A stretch of 64,000 nt of DNA from Acidimicrobiales bacterium (GCA_020629375.1 JAHDDK010000017.1:78-64077), one strand, 5' to 3'. Counted from the stretch's first letter, positions 2,808 through 53,105 are shown. Numbers and translations: made by a program. The notes: generated by a model from the sequence alone, not told the origin.

Positions 2808-3349
2808 GAAAACACTCCTCCGGCCAGTTCGGTCGACAGTTCGACAGGGTCGGGCCACTCCATCGCGTCGAGTCTGGCGGGCCAGCCGTCGGGTGAGTCG
2901 TCGATGGGCGGCGACCACAAGATCAGCGCGTCGTCGCCGGTGTCGGCGTAGTAGCCGGGGCGTACACCGACGGGTGCAAGCCCGAACGATCGGTACAGGC
3001 CGAGCGCCGCATCGTTGCCGGCGCGGACTTCGAGGGTCAGACCCCGCATCCCCGCCTCGCACGCCACCCGGGCGAGCGCCAACATGATGGTTCGGCCGTG
3101 CCCATGGCCCTGTGCGGCCGGATCGACTGCGATAGTCGACACGTGGGCTTCGTCGGCCAGGAACAACACGCCGCCATGGCCGATCACCCGACCTCGCTCG
3201 ACCACGACGACATGGGTTCGGTCGGGTCCGGTGATCTGATCGATCGTCATCTGCCGCGACCATGCGGTCGGATACACCTGCCGGTCGATGCGTTGAATGT
3301 CGTTGACGTCTTGGAGCTCCGCGTTGCGCAACAACAGCTTCGGGTTCAT
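2795..3349 (-). CDS. rimI: ribosomal-protein-alanine N-acetyltransferase RimI (GNAT)
   Basis: 184 aa with GNAT core AVDPAAQGHGHGRTIM. It sits between tsaB and tsaD as in other actinobacteria. Confidence 0.85.
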   Translation of the reverse strand: MNPKLLLRNAELQDVNDIQRIDRQVYPTAWSRQMTIDQITGPDRTHVVVVERGRVIGHGGVLFLADEAHVSTIAVDPAAQGHGHGRTIMLALARVACEAGMRGLTLEVRAGNDAALGLYRSFGLAPVGVRPGYYADTGDDALILWSPPIDDSPDGWPARLDAMEWPDPVELSTELAGGVFSCRS

Positions 3350-4044
3350 CGGTTGTCCCGGGTTTGCCAGTTGATCTCCGCGTCCGGTTTGCGCAGATAC
3401 AGCGGCTGGATCTCACTCGGCGACACGAACTCCTCGCGGAGGGCCCGGGGATGTGCGAGTTCGACAAGCGACCGAGCTGAAGGGTGCGCCGTCCCCGGTC
3501 CGGCGAAGTCGACACTCGCAACCGGTTCGAACACCTCGCGATAGCGGATCCCGCCGTCACCAACCATCAGCACGTCTTCGCCACCGGCGAGAAGCTCCGC
3601 GGCAAAGTCGTCAGGCTGCCACACCGCAGGCTCGGAGATGCGCTGCACTCCGCCGGGCACCGATCGATACCGGGCAGCGAACACTTCGCCACGACGAGCG
3701 TCGTAGCAGGCGGCGATCTGTTTCGGGCTGTGACGAACGGCGAACGCTCCGAGGTCGAGGCTCGATACGCCAATCATGGGCACGCCGAGCGCATGGGCGA
3801 CCGCCATGGCCGATGCAATCCCGACCCGGAGGCCGGTGAAGAGCCCCGGACCGACGTCGACCGCAACGACGCTGATCTCGGATATCTCGACCCGAGCTTG
3901 CTCGCACACGAAGGCGATCTGCGGCGTCAGGTTCTCGGCATGACGCCGATCCCGCGAACTGTGGGCCGATGCGAGCACCCCTTCGTGTCCGCCGATCGCA
4001 ACGCCGACCTGTGCCGTCGCCGACTCGATGCCGAGGACCAACAT
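3346..4044 (-). CDS. tsaB: tRNA threonylcarbamoyladenosine biosynthesis protein TsaB
   Basis: MLVLGIESATAQVGVAI...AVDVGPGLFTGLRVG. It overlaps rimI by 4 bp. Confidence 0.85.
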   Translation of the reverse strand: MLVLGIESATAQVGVAIGGHEGVLASAHSSRDRRHAENLTPQIAFVCEQARVEISEISVVAVDVGPGLFTGLRVGIASAMAVAHALGVPMIGVSSLDLGAFAVRHSPKQIAACYDARRGEVFAARYRSVPGGVQRISEPAVWQPDDFAAELLAGGEDVLMVGDGGIRYREVFEPVASVDFAGPGTAHPSARSLVELAHPRALREEFVSPSEIQPLYLRKPDAEINWQTRDNR

Positions 4045-4532
4045 CAGCGATCACCGTCGCGCGGCACGTCGAGCACCTTCGCCAGCGCCGACTCTCGAGC
4101 AGCCCACCGAGGGCCAACGGGCACGAACTCGATGAGACGATCGTCGTCTCCCTCTCCGAACGTGAACCGCACCTCGAGGTAGTCCGCAGGCAGCATCGGC
4201 ACGATCACGTCGCCCCACTCGATCAGCACAATCCCGCCCGAGTCCAGGAGGTCTGGGAGGTCGAGGTCGAGCGCTTCGGCCATCTGATCCAGCCGGTACA
4301 CATCGAGGTGATGAAGAGGCAACCGACCCTGATACTCACGGGCCAGGGTGAAAGTCGGACTCGTCATTGGCTCGTCGACGCCGAGCGCAGCGCCGAACGC
4401 CTTCGAGAAGGCCGTCTTGCCGGCACCGAGGTCACCCACCAGCAACAGGACGTCGCCTGCGGCCGCATGCTCGGCGAGCGCTGCGGCGATGCCCGCAGTG
4501 TCGGCAGGGCTGGAAGAGGCGACCAAGAACAT
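4044..4532 (-). CDS. tsaE: tRNA t6A ATPase TsaE
   Basis: P-loop GDLGAGKTAF followed by SPTFTL...HLDVYRL. Confidence 0.85.
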   Translation of the reverse strand: MFLVASSSPADTAGIAAALAEHAAAGDVLLLVGDLGAGKTAFSKAFGAALGVDEPMTSPTFTLAREYQGRLPLHHLDVYRLDQMAEALDLDLPDLLDSGGIVLIEWGDVIVPMLPADYLEVRFTFGEGDDDRLIEFVPVGPRWAARESALAKVLDVPRDGDR

Positions 4533-5460: not shown

Positions 5461-5487
5461 GGGCTCAGTCTCGCGTGCGGATCGGGA

Positions 5488-9708: not shown

Positions 9709-9723
9709 ACTGGCCCTGCGGGA

Positions 9724-10815
9724 TCAGACCCTCAACCTGTCGACAATCCGATCCAGCCGTGCGGCGATCCGGGGCCAGCCGAAGCGGTGCTGCACCTCCG
9801 CGGCGAGACCGGCCGACCGGTGCCTCCACTCCTCGACGTTCTCGAGCGCGTCACGGAGTCGTTCGGCGAGGTCGTCATCGTCGAGCGCCAACGGGTGGTA
9901 CTCGGCCGGGATGACTTCTCGATAGGCGAGATCGTTGGGCAGCAGCGGAATGGCGCCGCTCGCCACCGCTTCGGCAACCGCAATGCCGAAGAACTCGTGG
10001 TACGCCGTCGAAACGACGAAATCGGCAGTACGAAGAAGTTCGAGATAGCGGGGCCTCGGCACCCAACCCCATTCTTCGATGCGATCGGTGTGCCGTTGCC
10101 GCGCCGATCGAAACTCGCGGGGGTCCATACGCGTATTGCGACCGACCACCGCCAACCGCCAATCGAGGTCTTCGATGTCTCGGAGCGCCGAGAAGAAGTC
10201 CTGAGGTCCCTTGTCGTGGTCCCACCGGTGATTCCACAAAATCAGCGGAGACGTGTTCGGTCGGGGATCGGCGTCGACGGACAGCAGGTCTGGAGCAATG
10301 CCGATGGGGACCGTGATCGAACGATCGGAGATCCCCTCGAGCTGCGCTTCGGAGCACACCGCGTGCTTGCGGATCGCGGACGTGGCGATCCGCTGGTGGA
10401 AGTCGCTGTTCCACACGATCGCCTCTGCGGTGAGCAGCGCAGACGTCGTGATCGACGCGAACTCCGACGACGTCGGACGAGGTGACCCGCTCACATCGCG
10501 ATCGGGATAGGCGACGTGATTCTCGTGCATCATCACCATCGACGGGATGGTGCGAAGCTGCGGCACGATCGCCACGAGCTGCGACAGATTCGTCATGCTC
10601 GACGCCACCAACACATCGGGGGTCAGATCCCGTCGGACGATTTCGTCGGCGATGTCGATCGAGGCATGGCGCAACCGATCACGCCACCGATCTCCGGGCC
10701 GGGTGATCGCCGTGAGCTGATGAACGGAGTGCGCTGCCCAGCCGTCCACCCATGCCGCGTGCGAATCGACGAAGTACGGCTCGACGACAAGCACGTCGAG
10801 CGGGTCGCTGGTCAC
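9724..10815 (-). CDS. glycosyltransferase (DUF3524 plus GT1/GT4-type domain)
   Basis: VLVVEPYFVDSHAAWV N-terminal motif and a C-terminal GT-B fold signature (EFFGIAVAEAVASG). Start placed at GTG 10813-10815, which forms a GTGA overlap with the alr stop. Confidence 0.6.
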   Translation of the reverse strand: MTSDPLDVLVVEPYFVDSHAAWVDGWAAHSVHQLTAITRPGDRWRDRLRHASIDIADEIVRRDLTPDVLVASSMTNLSQLVAIVPQLRTIPSMVMMHENHVAYPDRDVSGSPRPTSSEFASITTSALLTAEAIVWNSDFHQRIATSAIRKHAVCSEAQLEGISDRSITVPIGIAPDLLSVDADPRPNTSPLILWNHRWDHDKGPQDFFSALRDIEDLDWRLAVVGRNTRMDPREFRSARQRHTDRIEEWGWVPRPRYLELLRTADFVVSTAYHEFFGIAVAEAVASGAIPLLPNDLAYREVIPAEYHPLALDDDDLAERLRDALENVEEWRHRSAGLAAEVQHRFGWPRIAARLDRIVDRLRV

Positions 10816-11930
10816 GACGACGGGCGATTGATGCGCGGGACCCGTTTCGAGATCGCGCACGTGACTTCATAGCCGATCGTCCCGAGGGTGGCGGCGACGT
10901 CGTTGGCCGTGATCGTCCGGCCTCCGTTGGAGCCAATCAGCGTGACGGTGTCGCCGACCGCCACGTCATCTTCACCGATATCGACCATCAACTGATCCAT
11001 CGTCACGACACCCACGATCGGATGCCGTTTCCCGTTGATCAGGACTCCTCCGCCTCGCAGACCGAGGTCGCGCCGCACGCCGTCGGCGTACCCGATCGGG
11101 ACGGTGGCGATCGTGGTCGGCTTTTCGGCGCGCCATCGATGGCCGTAGCCGACGGCTTCGCCCGCCCCGATCGGCTTCGCGAACGAGACGGCCGATTCGA
11201 GGGTCAGCGCGGGGCGTAGTTCCGCGGCGCCCGCCATCGCTGGATCAGGGTCGATCCCGTACATCGCAATACCGACACGACAGAACATCACATCGTTCGC
11301 TAGCCGACGGATCGTCACCGCGGAGTTGGCGACGTGAACGGGGAGGTCGGCAAGTGCCTCGATGGCACCGAACCGCTCGAGCTGCATCTCCGTGAACGGA
11401 TTGGCCGGCTCGTCACCGACAGGGGCGTGCGTCCACGCCGCCGAGATCGTGACCCCGTTGTCGTCTGCATGGCTCAAGAGCCGGGCAACGTGCTCAGGCT
11501 CCGCACCGACGCGGCGCATCCCTGTGTCGACCACGAGGTGTCCGATCGCCTTCACACCGACGGCTGCGCCGGCCGCACCAAACGCGGCGATTCCTGCCTC
11601 CGTGTACAGCGAAGGGGTCAGACCCCATTCGACCATTGCGGCCATGGCCGTGGGAGGTGGTTCGGACAAGACGAGAACGTCGATCTCGTCGAGACCCGCT
11701 TCACGCAGCTCGATTCCCTCTTCGACGAGGGCGACCGCCAGCCACTCGACTCCCGGGTGTGCAGCCGCGGTCCGAGCCACATCGATCGCACCGTGCCCGT
11801 AGGCATCGGCCTTCACCACAGCGCACAGCGGTGAGGCGCCGGCATGCGATTGCAGTGTCGTGAGATTGGCGGTGATCGCCTCGTGGTCGACGACGCAGCG
11901 GGTCGGACGCAGGTTGGGACCGGATGCCAT
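10812..11930 (-). CDS. alr: alanine racemase
   Basis: PLP-lysine motif AVVKADAYGHG. 372 aa. Confidence 0.9.
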   Translation of the reverse strand: MASGPNLRPTRCVVDHEAITANLTTLQSHAGASPLCAVVKADAYGHGAIDVARTAAAHPGVEWLAVALVEEGIELREAGLDEIDVLVLSEPPPTAMAAMVEWGLTPSLYTEAGIAAFGAAGAAVGVKAIGHLVVDTGMRRVGAEPEHVARLLSHADDNGVTISAAWTHAPVGDEPANPFTEMQLERFGAIEALADLPVHVANSAVTIRRLANDVMFCRVGIAMYGIDPDPAMAGAAELRPALTLESAVSFAKPIGAGEAVGYGHRWRAEKPTTIATVPIGYADGVRRDLGLRGGGVLINGKRHPIVGVVTMDQLMVDIGEDDVAVGDTVTLIGSNGGRTITANDVAATLGTIGYEVTCAISKRVPRINRPSS

Positions 11931-11955: not shown

Positions 11956-12534
11956 GTGAATCTCCTGTTGATCCGACACGGCCGCCCCGAGCGCATCGAC
12001 CACGATCCCAACGGCGCCGACCCGGCGCTGACCGACCTCGGGGCCCGTCAAGCCGAAGCGATGGCACACGCGCTCGGCGCCGAGCCGCTCGACGCGATCT
12101 ATGTCAGCCCGCAGCGCCGAGCGATCGAGACCGCGGCTCCTCTGGCGGCATCGCACGGAATCTCACCCGTGGTCGTCGACGGCATCGCCGAGTTCGACCT
12201 TGGCCAGCCGAGCTACATCCCCGGCGAAGAAGCCGGGCCGATGACCGACGACGATCTCACCGCGTTGATCGAGGCCATGACGAGCGACGATTTCGTCTCC
12301 CGTGTACACGCCGGCATCAACCACATCGTCGACGAGAATCCCGGCCGGAACGTGGCCGCGGTCTGCCACGGTGGCGTGATCTCCACGGTGCTCGGTGCGA
12401 TCCTCGACGCACCGGCGGGCACCTACTTCGATGCGCAGTACACGTCGGTCACCCGCCTTCGGGCGAGCCGAGACGGACGCCGATCGATGTTCACCTTCAA
12501 CGAGCACCACTGGCTCAGGGGTCTGGCCCCATGA
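11956..12534 (+). CDS. histidine phosphatase family protein (phosphoglycerate mutase-like)
   Basis: LLLIRHGRPE catalytic RHG motif. GTG start at 11956. Confidence 0.8.
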   Translation: MNLLLIRHGRPERIDHDPNGADPALTDLGARQAEAMAHALGAEPLDAIYVSPQRRAIETAAPLAASHGISPVVVDGIAEFDLGQPSYIPGEEAGPMTDDDLTALIEAMTSDDFVSRVHAGINHIVDENPGRNVAAVCHGGVISTVLGAILDAPAGTYFDAQYTSVTRLRASRDGRRSMFTFNEHHWLRGLAP

Positions 12535-15724: not shown

Positions 15725-16915
15725 CTACTGGGCGAGCGCGGTCGCAAGGACTTCGGATGCCGCCGCAACGCCAGATTGGCCGATCGGCGCGTTCATCGAT
15801 CGCAATCCGGCCTCGATCACGCCCAACGTGCCGAGGATCATCGGCGGACTCACCATTCCCATATGGCCGATCCTGAATGACTGATCAGGATGCGTCGTCA
15901 TGCCGATGCCGAGGGTCAGACCCCCGCGGTGTTCGCACCGCTGCCGCAACGCGGTCGCATCGATCACTCCGGTGCTGACCGTCGTCACCGCGTTCGATCG
16001 AAACCCCTCCGCGGCGACGAAGCCGATCCCGTCCGGCGTCGACCAGGCCTCGACAGCTGCACGAACCGCAGCGGCGATCACCTCGTGGCGAGCCCAGACC
16101 GCATCGAGCCCGCCTTCGTTGTCGATCAGGTCGAGCGCGACGTCCAGCGCCCGAATATGCGCAACGGGAGGCGTCCCGGAGAACGTGTCGTAGAAGCCAC
16201 GCGGCTCGAGGCGTGGCCCCCAATCGAAATAGCTCGTTGCCGGCGAGCCGGCGCGGCCGCGGTAGGTCTCGATCGCTCGTTCATCGGCCCACACGATGCC
16301 CAGGCCCGGCGGGCACATCAGTCCCTTCTGCGACGCGGAGACCGTGACATCGACGCCCCAGTCGTCCATCAGGTAGGGCTCGCATCCGAGAGACGCAATG
16401 CAGTCGGCCATCAGCAGCGCAGTCGATCCACAAGCATCGAGTGCTCGCCGGATCTCCGACACGTCGTTGCGCACCGACGTCATCGTGTCCGTGTGACTCA
16501 CGAGCACGGCGGCGTAGTCCTCATCGACCATGTCGAGATGCGCCGACAAAGCCTCGGCACCAACCGGCTGACCGAGGTCGGCTGTCAGCGTGTCGACCGT
16601 CGCACCTACCCGCTCGGCGTACTCGCCCCACAAGACGGCAAACCGACCGGTCTCGACCACGAGCACCCGGTCGCCGGGAGCAAGCACGTTCTGGACCGCG
16701 AGTTCCCAGGCCCCATGCCCGTTCGACGTTGCGATGAAGGCCCGAGCCGCGGTGCGGGCGATGGCCGGCAACCGTTCGAGCACTCGATCCGCGCATTCGA
16801 GCAAGTCGCCTGCGTAGATGTTTGGCATTGGCGACGACATCGCGATGCGAACGGCCTCGGGGATCACGCTCGGCCCGGGGATGGCGACCAACTGGGTACC
16901 CGCGGAGAGATCCAT
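15725..16915 (-). CDS. class V aminotransferase (serine-pyruvate/alanine-glyoxylate type)
   Basis: 396 aa with the PLP-Lys region SASQKGLMCPPG. Confidence 0.85.
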   Translation of the reverse strand: MDLSAGTQLVAIPGPSVIPEAVRIAMSSPMPNIYAGDLLECADRVLERLPAIARTAARAFIATSNGHGAWELAVQNVLAPGDRVLVVETGRFAVLWGEYAERVGATVDTLTADLGQPVGAEALSAHLDMVDEDYAAVLVSHTDTMTSVRNDVSEIRRALDACGSTALLMADCIASLGCEPYLMDDWGVDVTVSASQKGLMCPPGLGIVWADERAIETYRGRAGSPATSYFDWGPRLEPRGFYDTFSGTPPVAHIRALDVALDLIDNEGGLDAVWARHEVIAAAVRAAVEAWSTPDGIGFVAAEGFRSNAVTTVSTGVIDATALRQRCEHRGGLTLGIGMTTHPDQSFRIGHMGMVSPPMILGTLGVIEAGLRSMNAPIGQSGVAAASEVLATALAQ

Positions 16916-20071: not shown

Positions 20072-20108
20072 GGGGTCAGACCCTCCCGATACTGGGGGTC
20101 AGACCCCC
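20072..20108. repeat. REP-like palindrome pair (GGGGTCAGACCC, GGGGGTCAGACCCCC)
   Basis: Two copies lie between convergent genes. The second copy contains the stop codon of the Lrp gene. Confidence 0.8.
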
Positions 20109-21337: not shown

Positions 21338-22764
21338 CAGAGTCCGGCTCTGGCGGACTCCGCGTCGATCCGAGCTACGTTCCATTCGCGCCAACTCGTT
21401 GTCGAATCGGTCTCGCAGAGGTGCGCCACCATGCGTTCGAAGCGCGAGTTCGGAAGCGGGCGAAGCGCGTCGAGGCGCGTCACGATCTCCGGCGTCGCGT
21501 CTTCGGACAGCCACGACAGCGCTCTCACGCTGATGACCCCGTCGACCTCTCGGGGATGTTCGAAGTTGTACTGCGCGATCCGTTGATCCGGGTTCGACAG
21601 CCCCATCGCGAAAACGAATGCCAGCCAGGCGCACAGCAGCGCCCCCGTCATCCACTCGGCGTCCGGACGAATCTCGTGAATCCGAACGAGCACGAGTCCG
21701 AGAACGATGACGAGCAGGAGTCCGAAACCGAACGACCACCATCGCAACGGAGTCTGGAAGTTCCGCTCGACGTACTCGGCGATCCGCTGAAGCGCGATCA
21801 CATCGATGGCCGCAGCCAGCGCGACCACGAAGGTGGCCAAGCGTCGAAACCGTCGTCGTTCGATAAGGCCCTCGAGTGCTACGTGTCGCCGGAGGGTCAG
21901 GATCAGCACGACGGTGAGCGCCGCCACGAAGAGTAATTGGAAGAATCCCGAGCGGACCTCCGAGCGCCACGCGTCTTCGCTCAGCGGTGCACCAAGCCGG
22001 CCGAGTCGCACGGCGACGAAGACGCCGAACAGTGCGGCGACCGCTCCGAGGACGATCGTCGATTCGATGGATCGGAGTCGACGTCTCGCCGTCGAACCTT
22101 CGGTGGAGCGGCCCAGGTGAACCAGCGCGAAGAGCCCGCCGATCGCTGCGGTAGTGGCAAAGCCGAGCGCGATTCGAGGCGCGGGTAGTCGTCCGATGTC
22201 GACGATCGCCGCGAACACCTCATCGGCGGAAGCGAGCAGGCTCCAGAAGATTGTGACGACGACGAGTGCGAGGGTCAGACCCCGAACGATCACGAATGCA
22301 CTGTCCCCCGGCATCGCCGGTTGGACCAACGTCCCGCGGACCCCGCTGGCCCCGCTGGCTGTCGGGTTCCCCCGCCAGGCACGGAGCGTGCGCCCGATCC
22401 GGTAGTCGAACAGGGCTTGGTTGGTCGAGGTCGCGCTCGACGCGAGAACCACGATGGCCACGCAGCTGGCGACGACGCACCAGGCAAGCCAGCGATTGTC
22501 GCGAACCACGAGGAAGGCGCTCAGCACGGCTCCTGCGAGAAGCACGCTGTTCAATGCACCCTGGTTCTTCTGCCCGGTATGACGGAGGGCCGCGCCGGTT
22601 GCCCCCAGCACTCCGACGATCGCCACAGCCAACCCGAGGCTCGGAACCCACGTTGCCGAAACGGCGACAACCGTGCCCACGAGGACGCTCAGCCAGCGAC
22701 TCGTCACCGAGGTGCTGGGGCCGTCTGCGGCCACTGGCGACTCGGGAGCGTCTACCGACGTCAT
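21325..22764 (-). CDS. polytopic membrane protein (DUF4153/DUF4173-like)
   Basis: 479 aa with more than 10 hydrophobic helices. It is a paralogue of the upstream gene, with a similar C-terminal soluble tail. Confidence 0.55.
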   Translation of the reverse strand: MTSVDAPESPVAADGPSTSVTSRWLSVLVGTVVAVSATWVPSLGLAVAIVGVLGATGAALRHTGQKNQGALNSVLLAGAVLSAFLVVRDNRWLAWCVVASCVAIVVLASSATSTNQALFDYRIGRTLRAWRGNPTASGASGVRGTLVQPAMPGDSAFVIVRGLTLALVVVTIFWSLLASADEVFAAIVDIGRLPAPRIALGFATTAAIGGLFALVHLGRSTEGSTARRRLRSIESTIVLGAVAALFGVFVAVRLGRLGAPLSEDAWRSEVRSGFFQLLFVAALTVVLILTLRRHVALEGLIERRRFRRLATFVVALAAAIDVIALQRIAEYVERNFQTPLRWWSFGFGLLLVIVLGLVLVRIHEIRPDAEWMTGALLCAWLAFVFAMGLSNPDQRIAQYNFEHPREVDGVISVRALSWLSEDATPEIVTRLDALRPLPNSRFERMVAHLCETDSTTSWREWNVARIDAESARAGLCQAR

Positions 22765-22767: not shown

Positions 22768-24330
22768 TCAGTCGCTGCTTGACGAGGTTCGGCGCGGGGT
22801 CGGGCACAGTTCGTCGAGCTCCGACTCGGCCTGGCGGTCAGCCAGGTTCCAGCCCAGCGGGCCGTAGCGAAGCTCGTCGACCGGCTCGTCACAGAGCGCA
22901 CGAAGCATCGCTCCTCGGTGGCCGGCACTCAGGTCGACGAATGCGTCGGCGATCGCGGGTACCGCATCGTTCGACAAACGGGCGACGGTGATGGCATCGA
23001 ACTCGGCCCCCGCATTCGAGAGGTTGTACCGAGCGACCGTCGCGTCGGGATTCATGACGTTCATCGAGAATACGAAGACCGCAGCCGACACCAGGGTGAA
23101 GCCGGGAAACCACGACCGACCCTCAGCGAAGCCGGCGATTGCGACCGCGTACGCCACGATGACGACGATCACCCAGCCGACCCCGGCGATCGACCAGAGC
23201 CTCAGCGGCGTGAGGTCGAAGGATCCCACGTACAGCAGCAATCGCTGAAGAGCCACTGCCGCTATCGCGAGGGTCAGACCCAAGACGATGATGGCAATCG
23301 GACGGAACCGGCAGCGTTCGCCCTCGGCGAGTGGGCGACGAAGTCCTCGTACGGCGCCGACGACCGCGAGGCTGAGCGCAGCAACCCAGACCAGCTGAAA
23401 GAACCCACGTCGGGCATGCTGCGCCTGAGTGAGCCCTTCTGTTTCGAGCACGTGGTCGACGCCGCCCACCGCAACCGCGATCTGGGTGGCGACGAAGCCC
23501 GCAAAGAGGACGGCGAGGCTTCCGAGCACGATCGTGACCTCGACCGGGGCGAAGCCCGAGGGTTTGATGCGCATCTCCTGCGGAGCGGTTTCGTGGGCAG
23601 CGCGGGACAGCAAGCCGAGCAGGGCAACGGCGACGAGGGCCGACAACAGCACGTGTCCGATCATCGATGGCAGGTTGTCGAGAAGCAGCAGGCTGGCGAA
23701 CACGTCGTCGGCGGAGGCGAGAAGTGCACCAAAGACGAACACGACCGGCACCGCGACCAACAGGCCACGGAGAATCGCTGTGCCCTGCCCTCGCTGGGCT
23801 GCCGTTCGAACAAACCGTTGAACCATGTCGATGCCGTACGTCCACTCCACCACCTGCGACCCGGCGTGCGCCACGAAGGCAACAAACGGGAGATCGAAGA
23901 GTCGTCCGCGCTGGGAAAGCCCGACGGCGACGGTCCCCAGAAGCACGATCGCCATCGCCGTCGCTGCAGTCAGTGACCCGGACGATCGGATCGCCAGCCA
24001 TGGCGCAAGGGCAAGCGCGGCGAGCACAAGGACTTTCGACGATCCGGTTTTCAGTCGCCCCGATCCCCACAACCCGCCGGCAAAGACCGCGACACCCAGT
24101 GTGCTGGCCAAGCCGATGACCCCGACCCGAAGGCCGATGTTCAGCAGGAACCCCGCAACGACGACAGCGAGCAGCTCTTTCCAGCCAAGGTCCGGCTTCT
24201 CCGATCGAGCGAATGGGTTAGGTGGGGGCGTAGGCTTCAGGGAGGTGTTCGGCCCCGCAACGCGAACATGGGTTGCGTCGGCCGCCGGGTGTTCCGGGAC
24301 CGGCGGTGGTGGTTGATCAGAGATCGACAT
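22768..24330 (-). CDS. polytopic membrane protein (DUF4153/DUF4173-like), tandem paralogue
   Basis: Start taken at MSISDQ. It has the same helix pattern and C-terminal tail (ARYNLSN...L..LC) as 21325..22764. Confidence 0.55.
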   Translation of the reverse strand: MSISDQPPPPVPEHPAADATHVRVAGPNTSLKPTPPPNPFARSEKPDLGWKELLAVVVAGFLLNIGLRVGVIGLASTLGVAVFAGGLWGSGRLKTGSSKVLVLAALALAPWLAIRSSGSLTAATAMAIVLLGTVAVGLSQRGRLFDLPFVAFVAHAGSQVVEWTYGIDMVQRFVRTAAQRGQGTAILRGLLVAVPVVFVFGALLASADDVFASLLLLDNLPSMIGHVLLSALVAVALLGLLSRAAHETAPQEMRIKPSGFAPVEVTIVLGSLAVLFAGFVATQIAVAVGGVDHVLETEGLTQAQHARRGFFQLVWVAALSLAVVGAVRGLRRPLAEGERCRFRPIAIIVLGLTLAIAAVALQRLLLYVGSFDLTPLRLWSIAGVGWVIVVIVAYAVAIAGFAEGRSWFPGFTLVSAAVFVFSMNVMNPDATVARYNLSNAGAEFDAITVARLSNDAVPAIADAFVDLSAGHRGAMLRALCDEPVDELRYGPLGWNLADRQAESELDELCPTPRRTSSSSD

Positions 24331-27539: not shown

Positions 27540-28483
27540 GTCTGGTCCTTTGGGTTCGGGTTGGCGTCGACGGGCGCCGGGGCGTCGCCCACGGTGTGCA
27601 GTAGAAGGTCGTTGTGGCGTTCGAGGAGCTGCGCTGCGAGGCAGTGGGCAGCGGTAGAGCCGAACTCGGCTTCGGCCCGAGCGTAGAGCTCCTCGACCGC
27701 CTCGGTGAACGGGAGATCGATGCCGAGGTCCTCGGCGAGTTGCGTGGCGAGCCGCATGTCCTTGGCTGCGTGGCTGAGCGGAAACGAGGCGTCGTATGTG
27801 CCGGCCAGGATTTCGGGCCCGTACACATCGGCGGCGTAGCTGCGCCCAGCAGAGTGCTGGATCATCTCGAGCATCGCCTGGGGTCTGACCCCACCCTTCA
27901 CGCCCAACAGCATCGCTTCGATCAACGTGATCGTCTGCGTGTAGCAAAGCGTGACTTGGGCGATCTTCGCCACGACGCCCGCACCAGGCGGTCCGACATG
28001 GGTGACTCGCTCCCCGATCACGTCGAGTAGGGGTCTGACCCCATCGAACTCATGCTCTTCAGCGCCGACGAAGATCGCCAACGTTCCGGCCTGCGCACCT
28101 TCGGGTCCGCCGGATACCGGCGCATCGAGAACAGTGACACCGCAGTTGGCGCCTTCTTTCCGGATCGCCGAAGCCGTGACCGCGTCATTCGTCGACAGTT
28201 CGATCCACGTTGAGCCGGCTGCCATCACGCCGAGGAGGCCCGACCCTCGCGAATCGCCAAATGCGAGCTCTCGGATCTGTGGAGGCCCAGGCACCGACGT
28301 GAAAACCACGTCGGTGCCCTGCGCCGCTGCTTCTGCGTTGTCCGCAGCCGTTGCGCCGGATTCGACGACACGACGTAGACGTTCCGAATCGAGGTCCGAA
28401 ACAACGAGGTCGTGGCCCGCGTCGATCAGGCGCCGTGCTGCGCCACCTCCGATGTTGCCGAGACCAATGAACCCGATTCGCAT
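27536..28483 (-). CDS. NAD(P)-dependent oxidoreductase (3-hydroxyisobutyrate dehydrogenase family)
   Basis: MRIGFIGLGNIGG Rossmann start. Its stop overlaps the aldolase start by 4 bp. Confidence 0.85.
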   Translation of the reverse strand: MRIGFIGLGNIGGGAARRLIDAGHDLVVSDLDSERLRRVVESGATAADNAEAAAQGTDVVFTSVPGPPQIRELAFGDSRGSGLLGVMAAGSTWIELSTNDAVTASAIRKEGANCGVTVLDAPVSGGPEGAQAGTLAIFVGAEEHEFDGVRPLLDVIGERVTHVGPPGAGVVAKIAQVTLCYTQTITLIEAMLLGVKGGVRPQAMLEMIQHSAGRSYAADVYGPEILAGTYDASFPLSHAAKDMRLATQLAEDLGIDLPFTEAVEELYARAEAEFGSTAAHCLAAQLLERHNDLLLHTVGDAPAPVDANPNPKDQT

Positions 28484-29014: not shown

Positions 29015-29161
29015 GGGGTCAGACCCCCACCACTCGACCATCGCCAGTTGGATGTCGGGATTTCGGGGTCAGACCCCGGGATCTCGGGATCTCGGGTCTG
29101 ACCCCAAGCATTGTTCTCTCGCTGCGGAAGAAGCACAGCGGGTCAGTGGGGGTCAGACCCC
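29015..29161. repeat. REP-like cluster, 4 copies of GGGGTCWGACCCC
   Basis: Copies at 29015, 29065, 29094 and 29148. The last copy overlaps the final codons (GSDPH-stop) of the GH1 gene. Confidence 0.85.
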
Positions 29162-31568: not shown

Positions 31569-32467
31569 GGCAGGGGTACTCCTTCGCTCGCTTCGACAAT
31601 GTCGTAGCAATCGTTGCGGTCGAGATGGACATCGGCAGCTGCGATCGCAGCCGTGAGCCTCTCGGGCGTTTGGGTGCCAAGCAGCGCCACGGGCCGCGAG
31701 GGGTTAGCGAGAACGAACGCCGTGGCGATCGTCGCTCGGTCTGTGCCTTCCCGTTCGGCGAGTCGGTCGACGACCTCGAGAAGTTGGGGTCTGACCCCCT
31801 CGCCGCTGAAAAGACGTCCTCCCGCAAGCGGCGACCACGCGAGAGGGACCACGCCGTCACGCATCGAGCGATCGAACGTGCCGTCGCGCATCGGTTGAAG
31901 TTGAACCACGGAGAACTCGGGCTGGGTCGACACAACCGGAGCCGACAGGTGATGGGCGAGCGCGTCGTATTGATCGACAGTGAAGTTGGAGATACCCACC
32001 ATGCCGATCTTGCCGGCTGCAATCAGGCCGTCGAGGGTGTCGGCAATCTGCGCCGGATGGGCGAACATGTCCGGCCGATGAATCTGCCAGAGATCGATGT
32101 GGTCGACTCCGAGCCGCGACAGTGAGGCGTCAACTGCAGCAACGAGGTACTCCGAGCTGGAGTCATAGGGCAGCGGCGGCATGATTCCGCCCTTGGTGGC
32201 CAGCACCATGCGGTCACGGAGCCCGGGAGCATCCGCAAGCACCTGGCCGAGTCGCTCTTCGTTTTGGCCAAAACCGGTACCGCCCCAGTCCAAGCCGTAC
32301 ACATCGGCCGTATCGATGAGGTTCATTCCCACATCGAGTGCGGTTTCGATGAGCCTGTGGTTCGCAGCTGGGTCCTCAGCCGTGAGACGCCAAGTCCCAT
32401 ATCCGAGCGCTCCAACATCAGGTCCGTCGGTTCCGAGCCGACGAGGAGTCATGTCGACGAGAGTCAT
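31565..32467 (-). CDS. aldo/keto reductase
   Basis: GYGTWRL...DTADVYG...LATKGG motifs. Confidence 0.9.
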   Translation of the reverse strand: MTLVDMTPRRLGTDGPDVGALGYGTWRLTAEDPAANHRLIETALDVGMNLIDTADVYGLDWGGTGFGQNEERLGQVLADAPGLRDRMVLATKGGIMPPLPYDSSSEYLVAAVDASLSRLGVDHIDLWQIHRPDMFAHPAQIADTLDGLIAAGKIGMVGISNFTVDQYDALAHHLSAPVVSTQPEFSVVQLQPMRDGTFDRSMRDGVVPLAWSPLAGGRLFSGEGVRPQLLEVVDRLAEREGTDRATIATAFVLANPSRPVALLGTQTPERLTAAIAAADVHLDRNDCYDIVEASEGVPLP

Positions 32468-32535: not shown

Positions 32536-33624
32536 ATGAACCATCGCCACATTCGCTACGGGATCATCGGTACCGGGATGATGGGCGTCGAGCACATCTT
32601 GAACATCCTCGCACTCGAGGACACCAGTGTTGTGGCCATCGCCGATCCCGATGCCGGCTCAAGAGACCACGGGCTCGAGGCGGCGGGGGGCGAGGCGCGG
32701 GTTTACGAGGACTATCACGATCTCCTCGCCGACGAGGATGTGGACGCCGTGGTCGTTGTGACCCCGAACTTCACCCATCTCGAGGTCATGCGAGACGTGC
32801 TTGCAACCGGCAAGCACGTGCTCTGCGAGAAGCCCCTTTGCACGACCGCAGCCGATTGCCAAGCTCTAGTCGAGATGGCCGAGGGGTACGAAGGCGTGGT
32901 CTGGGTCGGCCTCGAATACCGGTACATGCCTGCGGTTCAAGCGCTCATCGCTGAGGTTCATGCCGGCACGGTGGGTGACGTCAAGATGGTGGCGATCCGC
33001 GAACATCGCTTCCCGTTCCTCGTCAAGGTGGGCGACTGGAACCGATTCTCGTCGAACACGGGTGGCACGTTGGTGGAGAAGACGTGTCACTACTTCGATC
33101 TGATGAATCTGATCGTCGGTCGACGGCCAGTCCAGGTGTACGCCTCGGGCGCGCAGGATGTGAACCATCTAGACGAGTCGTACGGGGGTCAGACCCCGGA
33201 CATCCTCGACAATGCGTTCGTGGTCGTGGACTACGAAGGCGGGGCTCGGGCGATGCTCGACCTTTGCATGTTTGCTGAGGCCACCAAGGATCAAGAGGAG
33301 CTGTCCGTTGTGGGCAACCTCGGCAAGGTCGACGCTCGGATTCCGACTTCCGAACTGCACGTCGGCATTCGCTCCGGGAAGGGCATCGCGGACATCGGCC
33401 AGGTCGACACGCGTGCGATCACGAACGACGCCATCAAGCACGAAGGCCTCCACCACGGTTCGAGCTATCTCGAGCACGTCGATTTCGCCGCTGCCATCCG
33501 GGGTCAGACCCCAGCCCTAGTGACGCTCGAGGACGGCCTGTGGTCAGTGGCCATGGGCGAGGCCGCACACCGTTCTATCCAGGAGAACCGTCCCGTCCGC
33601 CTCACCGAAATCCTGGGCATCTGA
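32536..33624 (+). CDS. Gfo/Idh/MocA family oxidoreductase
   Basis: IRYGIIGTGMMG Rossmann motif and EKP motif (VLCEKPL). Confidence 0.9.
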   Translation: MNHRHIRYGIIGTGMMGVEHILNILALEDTSVVAIADPDAGSRDHGLEAAGGEARVYEDYHDLLADEDVDAVVVVTPNFTHLEVMRDVLATGKHVLCEKPLCTTAADCQALVEMAEGYEGVVWVGLEYRYMPAVQALIAEVHAGTVGDVKMVAIREHRFPFLVKVGDWNRFSSNTGGTLVEKTCHYFDLMNLIVGRRPVQVYASGAQDVNHLDESYGGQTPDILDNAFVVVDYEGGARAMLDLCMFAEATKDQEELSVVGNLGKVDARIPTSELHVGIRSGKGIADIGQVDTRAITNDAIKHEGLHHGSSYLEHVDFAAAIRGQTPALVTLEDGLWSVAMGEAAHRSIQENRPVRLTEILGI

Positions 33625-33696: not shown

Positions 33697-33814
33697 GGGG
33701 TCAGACCCTAACGGACCCCAACCGAGCGGTCGATCGTTCATCGAAACTGCGCCCGACCGGGGTCTGACCCCTGCATCTCCGAACTGCGCCCGATCGGGGT
33801 CTGACCCCTGCATC
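33697..33814. repeat. REP-like cluster, 3 copies, including a ~36-bp tandem duplication
   Basis: Copies at 33697, 33759 and 33797. Units 33743-33777 and 33781-33814 are near-identical (GAACTGCGCCCGAYCGGGGTCTGACCCCTGCATC). Confidence 0.85.
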
Positions 33815-33981: not shown

Positions 33982-34722
33982 ATGAGACCGCTTCGAATCG
34001 ACTATGACGGCGCCTGGCATCACGCGATGAATCGCGGAGCCGCCCATCAGCCGATCTTTCGGGACGACGTCGACCGGCACACGTTCCTAGGGTTCGTCCA
34101 GAAAGCCGTCGAAAACACCGGTATACGGATCCATGCGTACTGCCTGATGGGTAATCACTTCCACCTTCTTGTCGAATCCGTGGACAGCTCGCTCAGCGCC
34201 GCGATGAAGATCATCGGTCAGGAGTACACACAGTGGTTCAACCGACGCCACGGCCGAGACGGCGCACTCTTCCGCGGCCGATTCACGTCCAAGATTGTGG
34301 AAGACGATGGGCATCGGCGGACGATCGTCGACTACATCCACGCCAACCCCTTCAGCGATCAGACAGCTCGATCCGGATTCTGCTGGTCCAGCTTCGATGC
34401 CTTGAAAGGGCTCATTCGCCCGCCGAGCTTCCTCACAACGAGCGTGGTCGGCCGGATCTTCAGACCCAAGAAGCGCGCTACTCGAGATCGTCGAAACCCG
34501 TGTTCGCCCCACAGAGGACAACACCGACGACCTCGTCCTTCGCAGGCCGGTACATGCCCGCTCGCAGCACAGCCACCGTCGTGGCCACCGCAGGCTCGAC
34601 GAGAACTCGAAAGGTTGTCCAGAGCCAACGACGCGCCTCGAGGACGACCTCATCCCGAACCGTCAGGCCCGCAGCGTCGACCCGGGACAGCGCCTCCCAA
34701 GCTAGCTCACCGATCTGTGTAG
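33982..34722 (+). CDS. REP-associated tyrosine transposase (RAYT; IS200-like Y1/HUH transposase, COG1943 type)
   Basis: MRPLRIDYDGAWHHAMNRG N-terminus, HUH motif NHFHLLV and catalytic-Tyr motif VDYIHANP. The last ~80 codons are Arg/Pro-rich and antisense to the next gene, so the real C-terminus is uncertain. Confidence 0.75.
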   Translation: MRPLRIDYDGAWHHAMNRGAAHQPIFRDDVDRHTFLGFVQKAVENTGIRIHAYCLMGNHFHLLVESVDSSLSAAMKIIGQEYTQWFNRRHGRDGALFRGRFTSKIVEDDGHRRTIVDYIHANPFSDQTARSGFCWSSFDALKGLIRPPSFLTTSVVGRIFRPKKRATRDRRNPCSPHRGQHRRPRPSQAGTCPLAAQPPSWPPQARRELERLSRANDAPRGRPHPEPSGPQRRPGTAPPKLAHRSV

Positions 34723-35461
34723 CCCCGAGCGCATCCGCAGTGACTCCGGAGACTTCCACGTCCACGGGGTGTCCGGCTCGTACGGCCGACGCGTACGCGC
34801 TGGTACGTTCGCCTTCGCATGCGATGATCGCTGGCCCCTTCGTTGACCCGTCACCGTACGAGGCGATAGCGGCACCGCCAGCGAGTCCACCGCCGCCGCA
34901 GGCGTACAAGATGGTGTCCAGCTCACGGCTCGACCTCTCAACCTGGTCGACAAACTCTGTGGTGACTGTTGCAGCACCGGCCATGACGCTCGGATGGTTA
35001 TACGCATGGATGTTTGTCGCCTCAAACCGCTCGACGTGTTCGAGACATGCCTCTAGGGACTCTGAGTAGATCGAGCCAACCTGACGAACGTCAGCACCGT
35101 AGCTGCGGAGCCGATCGACCTTCGACGGGTTCGAGATCGTTGGGACGAAGATTGTCGGGGTCAGACCCCGCTGCTTGGCCGCCCACGCCACCGCAGCCCC
35201 ATGATTTCCACCCGATGCCGCTGCGACCCCGCCCGGGCCGATCTCATTCGTTGCGAGGAAGTTCGTAGCGCCACGAGCCTTGAACGACCCCGAGTGCTGT
35301 AGGTGCTCGAGCTTGAACACGACCGGTGCGCCTGCTTCGAGCCCGAGCTCGTCCCGGCTGACTTCGAGCAGTGGGGTGGATCGGACGACGTTGCGGAGCC
35401 GCAAGCTTGCAGCTCGGACTTCGGCGATTGTCGGAAGAGTCATAATGGATGATTCAACCAT
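34478..35461 (-). CDS. PLP-dependent threonine/serine dehydratase family protein
   Basis: PLP-lysine motif HSGSFKARGA and glycine loop GGGGLAGG. Confidence 0.85.
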   Translation of the reverse strand: MVESSIMTLPTIAEVRAASLRLRNVVRSTPLLEVSRDELGLEAGAPVVFKLEHLQHSGSFKARGATNFLATNEIGPGGVAAASGGNHGAAVAWAAKQRGLTPTIFVPTISNPSKVDRLRSYGADVRQVGSIYSESLEACLEHVERFEATNIHAYNHPSVMAGAATVTTEFVDQVERSSRELDTILYACGGGGLAGGAAIASYGDGSTKGPAIIACEGERTSAYASAVRAGHPVDVEVSGVTADALGATQIGELAWEALSRVDAAGLTVRDEVVLEARRWLWTTFRVLVEPAVATTVAVLRAGMYRPAKDEVVGVVLCGANTGFDDLE

Positions 35462-35530: not shown

Positions 35531-35652
35531 GCTCGAACGAGGGTCTGACCCCCGTTCGTTCCGTTCGCTGACTGGCCTCGGTTGCGAGAGCTCGCTGACC
35601 GTGACCGCACGGCTTGGAGGGGTCTGACCCCGTGCAACGAGGGTCTGACCCC
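35531..35652. repeat. REP-like cluster, 3 copies plus one degenerate copy
   Basis: Copies at 35531, 35619 and 35641. A degenerate GGTCAGAC follows at about 35668. Confidence 0.8.
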
Positions 35653-40762: not shown

Positions 40763-40847
40763 GGGTCTGACCCCGGGTCGTGAGCCCGGGTCGGCCGAGT
40801 CCCTGACCCACGTGTCGACAGGTCGGGGCATGTCAGGGTCTGACCCC
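40763..40847. repeat. REP-like palindromes, 2 copies
   Basis: GGGTCTGACCCC at 40763 and 40836, between the lacI-family gene 3' end and the SBP operon promoter region. Confidence 0.8.
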
Positions 40848-45631: not shown

Positions 45632-45678
45632 CCGCCTCACGGGTGCCAGCGAACCCGGCGGAGCGTGAGTCGGTGAGT

Positions 45679-45723
45679 GGGGTCTGACCCCTACCGAACG
45701 TTCGTTAGGCGGGGTCAGACCCC
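45679..45723. repeat. REPIN-like inverted pair GGGGTCTGACCCC-N19-GGGGTCAGACCCC
   Basis: The spacer TACCGAACGTTCGTTAGGC contains the palindrome CGAACGTTCG. The element lies between convergent genes. Confidence 0.85.
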
Positions 45724-45765
45724 TGCTCGCCCACACTCGCGATCGCCCGGAGCCCAGCACACCGC

Positions 45766-48580: not shown

Positions 48581-48725
48581 GGGTCTGACCCCAACCTAAC
48601 GAACGTTCGGTAAGTCGGGGTCAGACCCCAACCGAACGCGCGTTAGGCAGGGTCAGACCCCAACCGAACGCGCGCTAGGCAGGGTCAGACCCCAACGAAC
48701 GGCGGGTCGGGAGGGGCCTGACCCC
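48581..48725. repeat. REP-like tandem cluster, 4 copies plus 1 variant
   Basis: Copies at 48581, 48617, 48650 and 48682, with variant GGGGCCTGACCCC at 48713. Spacers are about 20 nt and related to one another (AACCGAACGCGCGTTAGGCA twice). Confidence 0.85.
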
Positions 48726-51341: not shown

Positions 51342-51407
51342 CCGTCCAGAAGGTGTCGACGACGCTCGTCCCGTACTGTTGACCTCGGGCAAACAGGGGG
51401 AACGTCG

Positions 51408-53105
51408 ATGAGTGGGATGCCGTGGCGACAACGGGCTGAGCCGCCGGAGGTGACGATCACCTCGGGACGTCTACGAGGGGCGTGGAAGGACTCGGCGGAG
51501 GTCGCGGTGTTCGCCGGCGTGCCCTTCGCCGCTCCCCCCGTGGGCGATCGGCGATGGAGGCCGCCTCAGGCGGTGGAGTCGTGGACCGGCGTGCGAGCGG
51601 CGACGAAGGAGTCGCCGACGGCATACCAGCGTGCGGCGGGCATGGATGCGTTCATCACGATGCTCGTGAACGGACAGGGTTGGAGCCGTGCCCGAGCGAC
51701 GATGACCAAGACGTTGTTCGACAAGGCGCCACGTCCGAAGGAGAGCGAGGACTGCCTGTACCTCACCGTCCGGACGCCGGACCTGGGCGCCGACGCTCAG
51801 TTGCCAGTCATGGTGTGGATCCATGGCGGCGATCACTCCGACGGGTCGGGGTCTGACCCCTTCTATGCGTCGACCTCGTTGGCGAAGCACGGAGTCGTCA
51901 CCGTCAACATCAACTACCGACTCGGCCTGTTCGGCTACTTCGCACATCCCGAGCTGTCGGCCGAAGGCGGCCGCGGGGTGTCGGGCAACTACGGCACGCT
52001 CGACCAGATCGCCGCGCTGGAATGGGTGCGGGACAACATCTCGGCGTTCGGTGGCGACCCCGACAACGTGACCATCTTCGGCGAGTCCGCGGGTGGCGAA
52101 TCGGTTCTGCACATGATGACGTCGCCCGGAGCGCGCGGGCTCTTCCACCGAGCGATTCCGCAGAGCCCGGCCAACGGCGGCCAGATGATGCATCTCCGCC
52201 GCCCGTTCCTGAACTACGACGCCGCCGAAGATCGAGGGCTCACCTTCGCCGATGCACTGGGCATCACTGGCACTGGCCAGCTCGACCGCCTCCGAAGCCT
52301 GGCGCCCGACGAATTGATGGCGCTGGTTCGTGCCGCTCCGAGGCTCGGCGATCACTACCCCGTGATCGACGGAGAGGTCTTGCCCGAGTCCCCCCTCGCC
52401 GCATTTGCGGGCGGGCGGCAAGCCTCGGTTCCACTGCTCATCGGCTCCAACGCCGACGAAGGAACGTTGATCAAAGCGGCGCTGGACAGCCAGTCGCCGA
52501 TGGTCGAGTTTCGCCATCAGCCGGTCCCAGGAGATGGAGTGCAGCCGGAGATGGCCGAGGCGTTCGGTGACGATCTGGAAGCACTCACCACCCTCTACCC
52601 CGGCCTCGACCACAACGCCGAACGGGCGGCGGTCGACTTCATGGGGGATCACTTCTTCGGGGCGCGCGCCTACTGGTGTGCCCGCCACCATGCAGCAGCC
52701 GGCAATCCGACCTGGCTGTATCTCTTCACTCGTGTTCCGCCGAGCCCGAAGCAGACCGCCGGGGCGTACCACGGTGCCGAGTTGCCCTTCGTCCATGGCG
52801 TCAACATCCCGGTTCTGCCGCTGACAGCTGACGACAAACCCCTGGCCGCCCAGATCCAGGCGTACTGGACGTCGTTCGCCAAGACCGCAAACCCGAACGG
52901 CACCGCGTCGGTGTCGTGGCCGCCATTCGATCCGGCCGACCCCGTGTGGCTCGAACTCGACCACACCATCGAACCGAGAACGGTCGACCGCGTCGCGCAG
53001 TATGAGATCCTCAATCGTCGAACCGAACGGCTGGTCGCGGACATGGCGGAGCTGTCGAATGCTGCGCCGATCGATCTGACCGAGGTCCGCTCGACACAGC
53101 GATAG
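51408..53105 (+). CDS. type B carboxylesterase/lipase
   Basis: PVMVWIHGG oxyanion region and the nucleophile elbow FGESAGG. Confidence 0.9.
   Translation: MSGMPWRQRAEPPEVTITSGRLRGAWKDSAEVAVFAGVPFAAPPVGDRRWRPPQAVESWTGVRAATKESPTAYQRAAGMDAFITMLVNGQGWSRARATMTKTLFDKAPRPKESEDCLYLTVRTPDLGADAQLPVMVWIHGGDHSDGSGSDPFYASTSLAKHGVVTVNINYRLGLFGYFAHPELSAEGGRGVSGNYGTLDQIAALEWVRDNISAFGGDPDNVTIFGESAGGESVLHMMTSPGARGLFHRAIPQSPANGGQMMHLRRPFLNYDAAEDRGLTFADALGITGTGQLDRLRSLAPDELMALVRAAPRLGDHYPVIDGEVLPESPLAAFAGGRQASVPLLIGSNADEGTLIKAALDSQSPMVEFRHQPVPGDGVQPEMAEAFGDDLEALTTLYPGLDHNAERAAVDFMGDHFFGARAYWCARHHAAAGNPTWLYLFTRVPPSPKQTAGAYHGAELPFVHGVNIPVLPLTADDKPLAAQIQAYWTSFAKTANPNGTASVSWPPFDPADPVWLELDHTIEPRTVDRVAQYEILNRRTERLVADMAELSNAAPIDLTEVRSTQR

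Follow-up and report, generated by a model that had tools for sequence, protein, structure and literature searches.

How does one short palindrome come to be spelled out inside ordinary protein-coding genes, in several reading contexts and with the use of a rare codon? The question is raised by a 64,000-nucleotide stretch of DNA from an Acidimicrobiales bacterium (GCA_020629375.1, JAHDDK010000017.1:78-64077; called the window here), in which the word GGGTCWGACCC is present in 32 exact copies, compared with 0.05 expected from dinucleotide-preserving shuffles. It bears on two open puzzles, namely what the cell gains from repetitive extragenic palindromic (REP) sequences and their RAYT transposases, and why one short palindrome, such as HIP1 (GCGATCGC) of the cyanobacteria, is present in thousands of copies in some bacteria. 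These puzzles are difficult to approach, since either kind of system displays one half of the picture only. Both halves are found in this lineage, since a transposase gene with its terminal repeat occurs together with the same word in genes, where it is conserved against codon preference. Our reading, to which we assign a probability of about 0.6, is that a Y1 transposase has this word as its repeat core, and that the core was written into genes by base substitution and is held there by a force acting on DNA.

The full 13-mer, GGGGTCWGACCCC, makes up 18 of the 32 copies, and each occurrence of the 9-mer GGTCWGACC in the window, whose G+C content is 64-65%, extends to the 11-mer. Besides the exact copies, 5 sequences differ from the word at one base and 13 at two, and about 25 copies with up to two mismatches are expected by chance. 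There was no excess of one- or two-mismatch copies in the window and no halo of decayed copies, and the copy distribution is all-or-none. A search of the window against Rfam at gathering thresholds gave no match, and an exact-string literature search for the word retrieved unrelated primers and viral sequences only.

Gene models were obtained with a codon-likelihood caller, and the host genes were all confirmed by Pfam. An earlier inspection of the sequence, referred to here as the original prediction, had placed 14 copies inside genes. All 14 were recovered to within 1-2 bases; 13 of them lie in 11 Pfam-confirmed genes, and the 14th (20095) forms the TGA stop codon of an Lrp/AsnC gene. Two host genes that had been described as DUF4173-like are assigned to DUF4153 by Pfam. 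The other 18 copies are intergenic and clustered, except for one that lies 23 nt from the Lrp stop copy. The copies in genes, and those at the Lrp stop, are as follows.

3034..3044, minus strand: GNAT/rimI gene (2795-3349, minus), codon 102, CGG GGT CTG ACC CTC = R-G-L-T-L
11614..11626, minus strand: 13-mer in the alanine racemase gene alr (10812-11930, minus), codon 102, W-G-L-T-P
15913..15923, minus strand: class V aminotransferase gene (15725-16915, minus), codon 331, G-G-L-T-L
20095..20107, minus strand: 13-mer whose internal TGA is the stop of the Lrp/AsnC gene (20099-20563, minus), K-G-V-stop
20073-20083: second copy beside the Lrp/AsnC stop copy, 23 nt apart
22272..22282, minus strand: first DUF4153 gene (21325-22734, minus), codon 151, R-G-L-T-L
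23271..23281, minus strand: second DUF4153 gene (22768-24330, minus), codon 350, L-G-L-T-L
27880..27892, minus strand: 13-mer in the HIBADH-like gene (27536-28483, minus), codon 198, G-G-V-R(AGA)-P
28030..28042, minus strand: 13-mer in the same HIBADH-like gene, codon 148, D-G-V-R(AGA)-P
29150: last five codons of the GH1 gene (29143-30492, minus), outside the Pfam domain, G-S-D-P
31786..31798, minus strand: 13-mer in the aldo/keto reductase (AKR) gene (31565-32467, minus), codon 224, G-V-R(AGA)-P
33185..33197, plus strand: 13-mer in the Gfo/Idh/MocA gene (32536-33624, plus), codon 217, G-G-Q-T-P
33500..33512, plus strand: 13-mer in the same Gfo/Idh/MocA gene, codon 322, R-G-Q-T-P
35157..35169, minus strand: 13-mer in the PALP enzyme gene (34478-35404, minus), codon 79, R-G-L-T-P
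51848..51860, plus strand: 13-mer in the carboxylesterase gene (51450-53105, plus), codon 134, G-S-D-P

The reading contexts matched those predicted, with G-L-T occurring six times, G-Q-T twice, G-V-R-P three times (all with AGA), G-S-D-P twice and the stop once. AGA is indeed rare and is forced by the word in the G-V-R-P context; it accounts for 26 of the 1289 arginine codons in the window (2%), and 3 of the 26 are inside the motif. When synonymous codons were shuffled with the proteins and the pooled codon usage fixed (n = 3000), the mean number of in-gene copies was 0.17 and the maximum 3, compared with the 13 observed. The word encodes 3 of the 4 GVRP peptides in the window, 2 of the 3 GSDP, 6 of the 17 GLT and 2 of the 4 GQT. 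Together, GVRP, GSDP and G[LQ]T peptides number 28 against 12.9 expected from residue shuffles, none of which (0/2000) reached 28. This excess of about 15 roughly equals the 13 in-gene copies, indicating that the word has shifted protein sequence.

The identity of the word is suggested by a gene in the window that lies directly downstream of three intergenic copies.

33698..33808: three intergenic copies just upstream of the Y1 transposase gene, starting at 33698, 33760 and 33797; the second and third make up a 37-nt direct repeat
33982..34477, plus strand: RAYT/TIRYT-type Y1 (HUH) transposase gene, probably truncated; HUH motif NHFHLL, Tyr motif DYIHANP

The three copies are 185-284 nt upstream of the gene, the product of which matches Pfam Y1_Tnp (E = 1.5e-10). 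Its best NCBIfam match is REP_Tyr_transpos (NF047646), at 51 bits and below the cut-off of 80, and two homologues scored 64 and 76 bits, also under the cut-off; judged by these scores, the window protein and its homologues are related to the curated RAYT family and are not equivalogs. The open frame continues to 34722, running antisense through the 3' end of the PALP gene, whose C-terminus is intact, and full-length homologues are 228-275 amino acids long. The window copy is therefore probably truncated. An 853-nt segment (33625-34477) that includes the gene is absent from a syntenic relative, in which there is a 25-nt overlap between the Gfo/Idh/MocA and PALP genes.

The word was also found next to Y1 genes in other genomes. 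A wide scan for two 13-mers 15-40 nt apart, taking one genome per species, recovered at least 120 stretches, 4 of which encode a Y1 homologue (E 1e-20 to 1e-26). Motif copies directly flank the Y1 gene in 3 of these 4 (Marinobacter, a Comamonadaceae metagenome-assembled genome and locus L107), and the Y1 homologue of locus L159 is also flanked on both sides. The closest full-length homologues (53-56% identity), at loci L210 and L211, have inverted motif copies on either side, at -198, -155 and +19 in L210, which belongs to the window's sample series and has the terminal repeat GGGGTCTGACCCTCTCATTAC, and at -258, -198, -143 and +21 in L211. The Y1 locus L212 carries decayed versions of the motif. 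Clustering of the open reading frames in 120 motif-bearing loci of other genomes revealed no dominant neighbouring protein family.

The possibility that the exact motif stands beside every Y1 homologue was rejected, as the exact 11-mer was found in 2 of 80 more distant homologous loci from metagenomes; what is shared is the 8-base end GGGGTCAG. The sequence GGGGT[CG]A[GCA] was present up to 170 nt upstream of the gene in 53 of the 69 assessable distant loci, in 42 of them exactly as GGGGTCAG, and the reverse complement was present downstream in 29 of 63; the background is 0.26 per kb. GGGGTCAG fits GGGGWSAS, the published consensus for the terminal inverted repeats (TIRs) of TIRYT/TIRtron elements (PMC3733652), for which Quentin et al. 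2018 (PMC6006769) suggest a probable correspondence to their subclass 2.1. The word is the repeat or TIR core of a RAYT/TIRYT-type Y1 transposase system, composed of GGGGTCAG followed by ACCCC and hence a palindrome. With A or T at its centre, each copy has the perfect 8-mer on one strand only.

How the core came to lie inside genes was examined by comparison with a related genome (GCA_020629635.1), whose contig JAHDCX010000004.1 is syntenic with window positions of about 1800-39000. Orthologues in the two genomes are 53-96% identical in amino-acid sequence, and 23-41% of their bases differ. The relative's two loci, about 38 kb, contain 15 copies of the word, 10 of them wholly in genes and 2 more carrying a gene's stop codon. 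Exact copies common to both genomes were found at GNAT codon 102, aminotransferase codon 331, HIBADH codons 148 and 198 and AKR codon 224. At alr codon 102 the window copy is perfect and that of the relative departs from it by a single synonymous base (ACG instead of ACC), and at two other sites it is the relative that is perfect.

10620..10630, minus strand: one-off copy GGGTCAGATCC in a glycosyltransferase gene, codon 71, orthologous to a perfect copy in the relative
12519-12529: one-off copy at histidine-phosphatase codon 188, with a perfect copy at the relative's orthologous site

Sites present only in the window are PALP codon 79, Gfo/Idh/MocA codons 217 and 322 and one in each DUF4153 gene, while three sites in DUF4153 genes and one in an amine-oxidase gene are present only in the relative.

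Pairwise codon alignments with the relative had no gap at any of the 12 internal sites, and none was seen at the sites in alignments of 33 HIBADH, 26 alr and 16 Gfo/Idh/MocA sequences. The lack of insertions or deletions implies that the internal copies are not insertions; rather, they arose in place by base substitution, without change in length. The relative reads VRGTAIA at DUF4153 codon 151 and VLALSLA at codon 350, and ERSVRAN at PALP codon 79 where the window reads QRGLTPT, again with no gap at any of these sites and with 10 of 13 bases differing at the last. At Gfo/Idh/MocA codon 217 the relative has YDGQASD and the outgroup consensus is YDGxx(P/S)D, which makes the window state, YGGQTPD, derived; RGQTP at codon 322 lies in a variable loop and is derived in the window lineage. 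The orthologue consensus at HIBADH codon 198 is GGV[EDQAH]P, so that the arginine of GGVRP, present only in the window and its closest relative, is also derived. Three other Acidimicrobiia-type genomes have GGG GTG CAG CCG, GGG GTC GAA CCG and GGC GTC GAG CCG at this position and no motif in the HIBADH gene; two of them are without a copy in 21 kb, and the third has two copies, both in genes. At HIBADH codon 148, V-R-P is widespread among orthologues and the glycine is variable, and at alr codon 102, L-T-P is widespread and GLTP-like peptides are common, so that in both cases the peptide already fitted the word. Residue changes thus range from none at sites with a pre-fitted peptide to 1-5 at others, and lineage-specific sites differ at 5-10 of 13 bases, compared with 18-40% in the flanks. 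The original prediction had proposed aligning the host proteins with orthologues from genomes lacking the motif; in these alignments, genomes with few or no nearby copies use other codons, as at HIBADH codon 198, and several host peptides, such as those at Gfo/Idh/MocA codon 217 and PALP codon 79, have been remodelled.

Conserved residues use the same codon in the window and the relative in 50.5% of cases, and unchanged four-residue windows have identical DNA in 264 of 2244 cases (11.8%); synonymous sites are close to randomised between the two genomes. Six window sites have a peptide that is unchanged in the relative. Five of these keep all motif bases and one differs at a single synonymous base, a retention of 5/6 against the 11.8% baseline (binomial P ~1e-4), and the AGA codons in the motif are kept in all three cases. 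Retention of the motif thus exceeds what amino-acid conservation explains. The proposal that the force acts on the DNA and not on the proteins is thereby strengthened, as it is by the synonymous shuffles and the excess of motif-encoded peptides.

The intergenic copies, apart from those already listed, are arranged as follows.

29015..29161: four-copy cluster at the 3' end of the GH1 gene, three copies intergenic (29016, 29066, 29094) and one in-gene (29150)
35541..35651: three intergenic copies, starting at 35541, 35620 and 35641
40763..40846: two intergenic copies
45679..45723: REPIN-like inverted doublet, a pair of 13-mers on either side of a palindromic spacer
48581..48724: array of four exact copies and one decayed copy, with spacings of 37, 32, 32 and 32 nt

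Across the shared 40 kb, no intergenic cluster of the window has an equivalent in the relative, and the cluster of the relative (13952-14013) is likewise missing from the window. The two genes flanking the Lrp stop site overlap in the relative and carry no motif there, and the region corresponding to 35541-35651 is a 15-nt spacer only. Only the 3' end of the GH1 gene carries the word in both genomes, and the frame in which it is read differs (...GSDPH-stop for the window, ...DGV-stop for the relative). Intergenic arrays thus behave as mobile insertions and internal gene copies as constrained sites. As single-stranded DNA, the doublet (45672-45730) folds at -20.4 kcal/mol (z = -6.3) and the array (48575-48700) at -37.1 kcal/mol (z = -6.9). 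The in-gene copies as single strands fold weakly (-3.4 to -6.7 kcal/mol, z ~ -1.3 to -1.9), and for this reason no RNA or terminator role is proposed for them.

Within the array, the core alternates with a second, imperfect palindrome (CCTAACG...CGTTAGG), to which the spacer palindrome of the doublet, GAACGTTC, is similar; the final unit of the array, at 48714, has decayed to GGGCCTGACCC. Elsewhere in the window, the one-off copies GGATCAGACCC at 5485-5495 and 9721-9731 overlap the TGA stops of the genes at 5488-6585 (minus) and 9724-10860 (minus). These genes are ended by the motif's internal TGA, as at the Lrp stop and at the GH1 stop of the relative.

The family formed by these repeats has much in common with TIRYT/TIRtron elements. 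A Y1 HUH gene is flanked by inverted repeats with an outer end fitting GGGGWSAS, some repeat ends give stop codons to neighbouring genes, and the TIR is also repeated in the genome (32 copies per 64 kb in the window and 15 in about 38 kb of the relative). Some TIRs of TIRYT elements are, moreover, partly or wholly self-complementary (Di Nocera et al. 2013, PMC3733652). The dispersal of the family as singles, inverted doublets and clusters is a feature of both TIRYT/TIRtron and REP/REPIN-RAYT systems. With the latter it shares Y1 genes flanked by inverted repeats, in L210, L211, L107 and L159 (the window gene has three copies upstream), and a doublet and an array able to form long hairpins. Unlike REP/REPIN-RAYT repeats, the copies here are not all extragenic, with about 40% (13/32) in Pfam-confirmed genes, and neither GTAG nor CGTC, the tetranucleotide tags at one hairpin end in REP/RAYT systems, is conserved beside the core in the 32 aligned window copies. 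Further differences from TIRYT and RAYT systems are that the window Y1 gene copy is without its C-terminal part, and that the in-gene copies consist of the 11-13 base core, derived by substitution and conserved while the intergenic arrays are not. The papers searched contained no description of substitution-derived, conserved repeat cores inside genes. The original prediction had set the copies apart from classical REPs, and this holds for their location and origin but not for their identity, since the word is the core of a RAYT/TIRYT-associated REP/TIR family. The word is a variant of that repeat, and its behaviour in genes is HIP1-like.

Between genes, then, the core spreads as inverted doublets and tandem arrays, which are true insertions with fast turnover. 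In genes, the 11-13 base core alone has become established where the protein tolerates G-L/Q-T, G-V-R-P or G-S-D-P, sometimes through synonymous changes only and sometimes with replacement of 1-5 residues and adoption of the rare AGA codon. Once present, an in-gene copy is held exactly, despite the near-randomised synonymous sites. As for the cause, we prefer the view that the palindrome is recognised by the transposase or by a partner protein, and that exact copies are favoured via selection or via a bias in repair or conversion, which would parallel the explanation put forward for cyanobacterial HIP1. The transposase, some relatives of which have a C-terminal helix-turn-helix, is a candidate binder. 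In TIRYT/TIRtron proteins of subclass 2.1 this C-terminal domain is of the HTH_23, HTH_28 or Bac_DnaA_C type; the Y1 homologue P0421 has HTH_23, and those of L210 and L211 extend by about 100 further residues at the C-terminus, in which Pfam gives no match. The holding force would act on the DNA, whether as selection for a host function or as a conversion or repair bias. A stronger version, in which the 13-base palindrome is written into coding DNA or selected there, without insertion, by the Y1-transposase repeat system itself or by a coupled host process, is offered only tentatively.

Several points weigh against the reading of the word as a transposase repeat core written into genes and held there. 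We know of no Y1-transposase reaction that writes sequence into DNA without a change in length. Y1 transposases are known to recognise hairpins, a mode of recognition that may not extend to the weakly folding in-gene copies, and the Y1 copy in the window itself is probably truncated. The proteins flanked by the palindromic form are 33-56% identical to the window Y1 protein, and the scarcity of the exact 11-mer among the 80 more distant loci makes the palindromic form one variant among many. The divergence of 23-41% means that single-event patches and stepwise change are indistinguishable, and clustering of substitutions, tried as a test of such patches, was uninformative. Free half-sites GGGGTCWG, of which the window has 5 compared with 2.4 expected, are neither depleted nor strongly enriched, which argues against a simple half-site-to-palindrome conversion; we consider this route unsupported. 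Finally, the comparison covers about 100 kb of two related genomes.

Of the alternatives, the one that survives best, although we regard it as unlikely, is biased templated conversion, or molecular drive. Intergenic copies would serve as ectopic templates during replication or repair, and short patches would overwrite partly similar coding DNA, with purifying selection acting as a filter; conservation of position would then reflect repeated re-conversion and not a benefit to the cell. The all-or-none distribution of copies is as this would predict, and so is the concentration of differences at lineage-specific sites relative to their flanks. In addition, a 14-nt sequence, GGGTCTGACCCTCG, is common to 4 of the 6 G-L-T copies (3034, 15913, 22272 and 23271) and is the start of the L210 terminal repeat (L210 2627-2690, 3620-3645), and it also occurs in the intergenic variants at 35541 and 35641. 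The shared sequence is a weak hint of templating. It may mark sub-families and a templated origin, or it may simply reflect that CTC is the commonest leucine codon in the window (52%). Against conversion, the homology between the flanks of in-gene and intergenic copies ends at 13-15 nt, which is less than known conversion needs, and at alr, 10620 and 12519, where copies at orthologous sites are one base apart, the differences resemble ordinary point changes.

The word might instead be a HIP1-type motif kept by a cognate orphan methyltransferase or a restriction-modification system, the transposase link being secondary. The resemblance to HIP1 noted in the original prediction is borne out. Both are short perfect palindromes that are over-represented after control for codon usage, both occur between genes and, in all frames, within them without a peptide-level role, and in both the sites are conserved between orthologues beyond expectation. 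The case made for HIP1 by Xu, Lawrence and Durand 2018 (PMC5861425) likewise combines codon-controlled over-representation with orthologue conservation. HIP1 is linked to orphan methyltransferases, two of which are reported to recognise it (Elhai 2015, PMC4390886; 2026 bioRxiv preprint 10.64898/2026.06.24.733823). A perfect palindrome with weak in-gene hairpins would, moreover, suit a dimeric binder of double-stranded DNA. The words themselves differ, however, in length (13 versus 8 bases) and in phylum, and the word described here has a transposase or mobile-element partner and hairpin-forming intergenic arrays, unlike HIP1. Annotation of parts of the window and of the related loci turned up no methyltransferase gene, genomes usually avoid restriction sites rather than enrich them, and in dozens of unrelated loci the conserved terminal repeat of the transposase matches the word's first 8 bases. 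We therefore consider a methyltransferase-maintained motif improbable.

DNA uptake provides another precedent, in which the competence machinery prefers a word and recombination enriches it, as for the DNA uptake sequences (DUS) of Neisseria and the uptake signal sequences (USS) of Haemophilus and other Pasteurellaceae. Those sequences occur at about 1 per 1-2 kb with a sizeable share in genes and form inverted intergenic pairs, and host peptides are remodelled at tolerant positions. The pattern here is the same, with about 40% of copies in genes and in all frames, intergenic copies in inverted, hairpin-making pairs, and perfect copies outnumbering one-off copies. Known uptake sequences are, however, non-palindromic, specific to one family and tied to a competence receptor, whereas this word is palindromic, is found in more than 10 phyla and classes and, in several phyla, goes together with a transposase gene. 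The annotated parts of the window showed no competence gene, and an uptake drive seems very improbable to us. Neither uptake nor a methyltransferase explains the transposase linkage.

In-frame insertion of repeat units is documented for intragenic REPs and for Rickettsia palindromic elements, which are likewise palindromic repeats within functional genes; the published cases are insertions that add residues (Di Nocera et al. 2013, PMC3733652), 7-80 in number, and the internal copies here add none. As length is unchanged at all 12 internal sites, this explanation is refuted there and is highly improbable overall; it stays plausible only at gene ends, where the copies (GH1, Lrp and the one-offs at 5485 and 9721) resemble insertions that replace a C-terminal tail or supply a stop. 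Chance, codon usage or selection on a shared peptide, for which the ancestral-type V-R-P of HIBADH and L-T-P of alr might be cited, is refuted by the 13 copies observed where 0.17 are expected, by the encoding of four different peptides by one DNA word, by the rare codon kept in both genomes and by the different frames in which the motif is read at the GH1 3' end.

If a repeat core of a Y1 transposase is indeed written or selected in genes without insertion, it would constitute a genome-wide set of sites maintained at the DNA level and would place REP/RAYT systems and HIP-type palindromes on one continuum. It would also imply an undescribed sequence-specific conversion mechanism or a chromosome-level function of a domesticated transposase. 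For annotators, there is a warning that "extragenic" repeats can shape protein sequence.

The motif-pair loci of the wide scan (at least 120) come from Actinomycetes, Acidobacteriota, Planctomycetota, Alpha-, Beta- and Gammaproteobacteria, Firmicutes, Bacteroidales, Omnitrophota and a spirochaete, so that inverted 13-mer pairs are present in more than 10 phyla and classes among the matches listed. Low-G+C Firmicutes (Jeotgalibacillus, Bacillus and Oribacterium) are included. The 13-mer is constant across the listed loci, and its flanks are genome-specific and inverted repeats of each other. Isolated singles account for 12 of the 347 copies in loci L001-L120, among the matches listed. In-gene copies in other phyla were considered and rejected, as the isolated copies of Rectinema (L012) proved intergenic once start codons were considered. 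The in-gene habit has so far been found only in Acidimicrobiia-like genomes, namely those of the window and of loci L123/L206, L209 and L210. L209 (GCA_039028435.1), from a more distant member of the Actinomycetota, has only two copies in 21 kb, both in genes: one at 12480 in an MR_MLE enzyme (NQGLTPK) and one at 18030 in a type I phosphomannose isomerase (RGGLTPK). The window orthologues of both are without the motif at these sites, and the L209 copies are independent in-gene gains.

Some minor features of these loci may be recorded. In loci L001-L120, the 13-mer is often flanked by runs of A and T, resembling a bidirectional terminator. At L211 (GCA_020357715.1), six GGGGTCAGACCCGCGCG units with irregular spacings of 19-85 nt lie at 604-793, 5.2 kb upstream of the full-length Y1 gene, which is itself flanked by a GGGGTCAGACCCGCGCG unit. 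In the window, a small conserved open reading frame (28577-28883, minus strand), missed by the codon-likelihood gene caller, lies between the HIBADH-like gene and the motif cluster at 29016-29104. It is 67% identical to a gene at L123 9597-9947 and has a weak SSB/OB-fold match in Pfam (E = 0.005).

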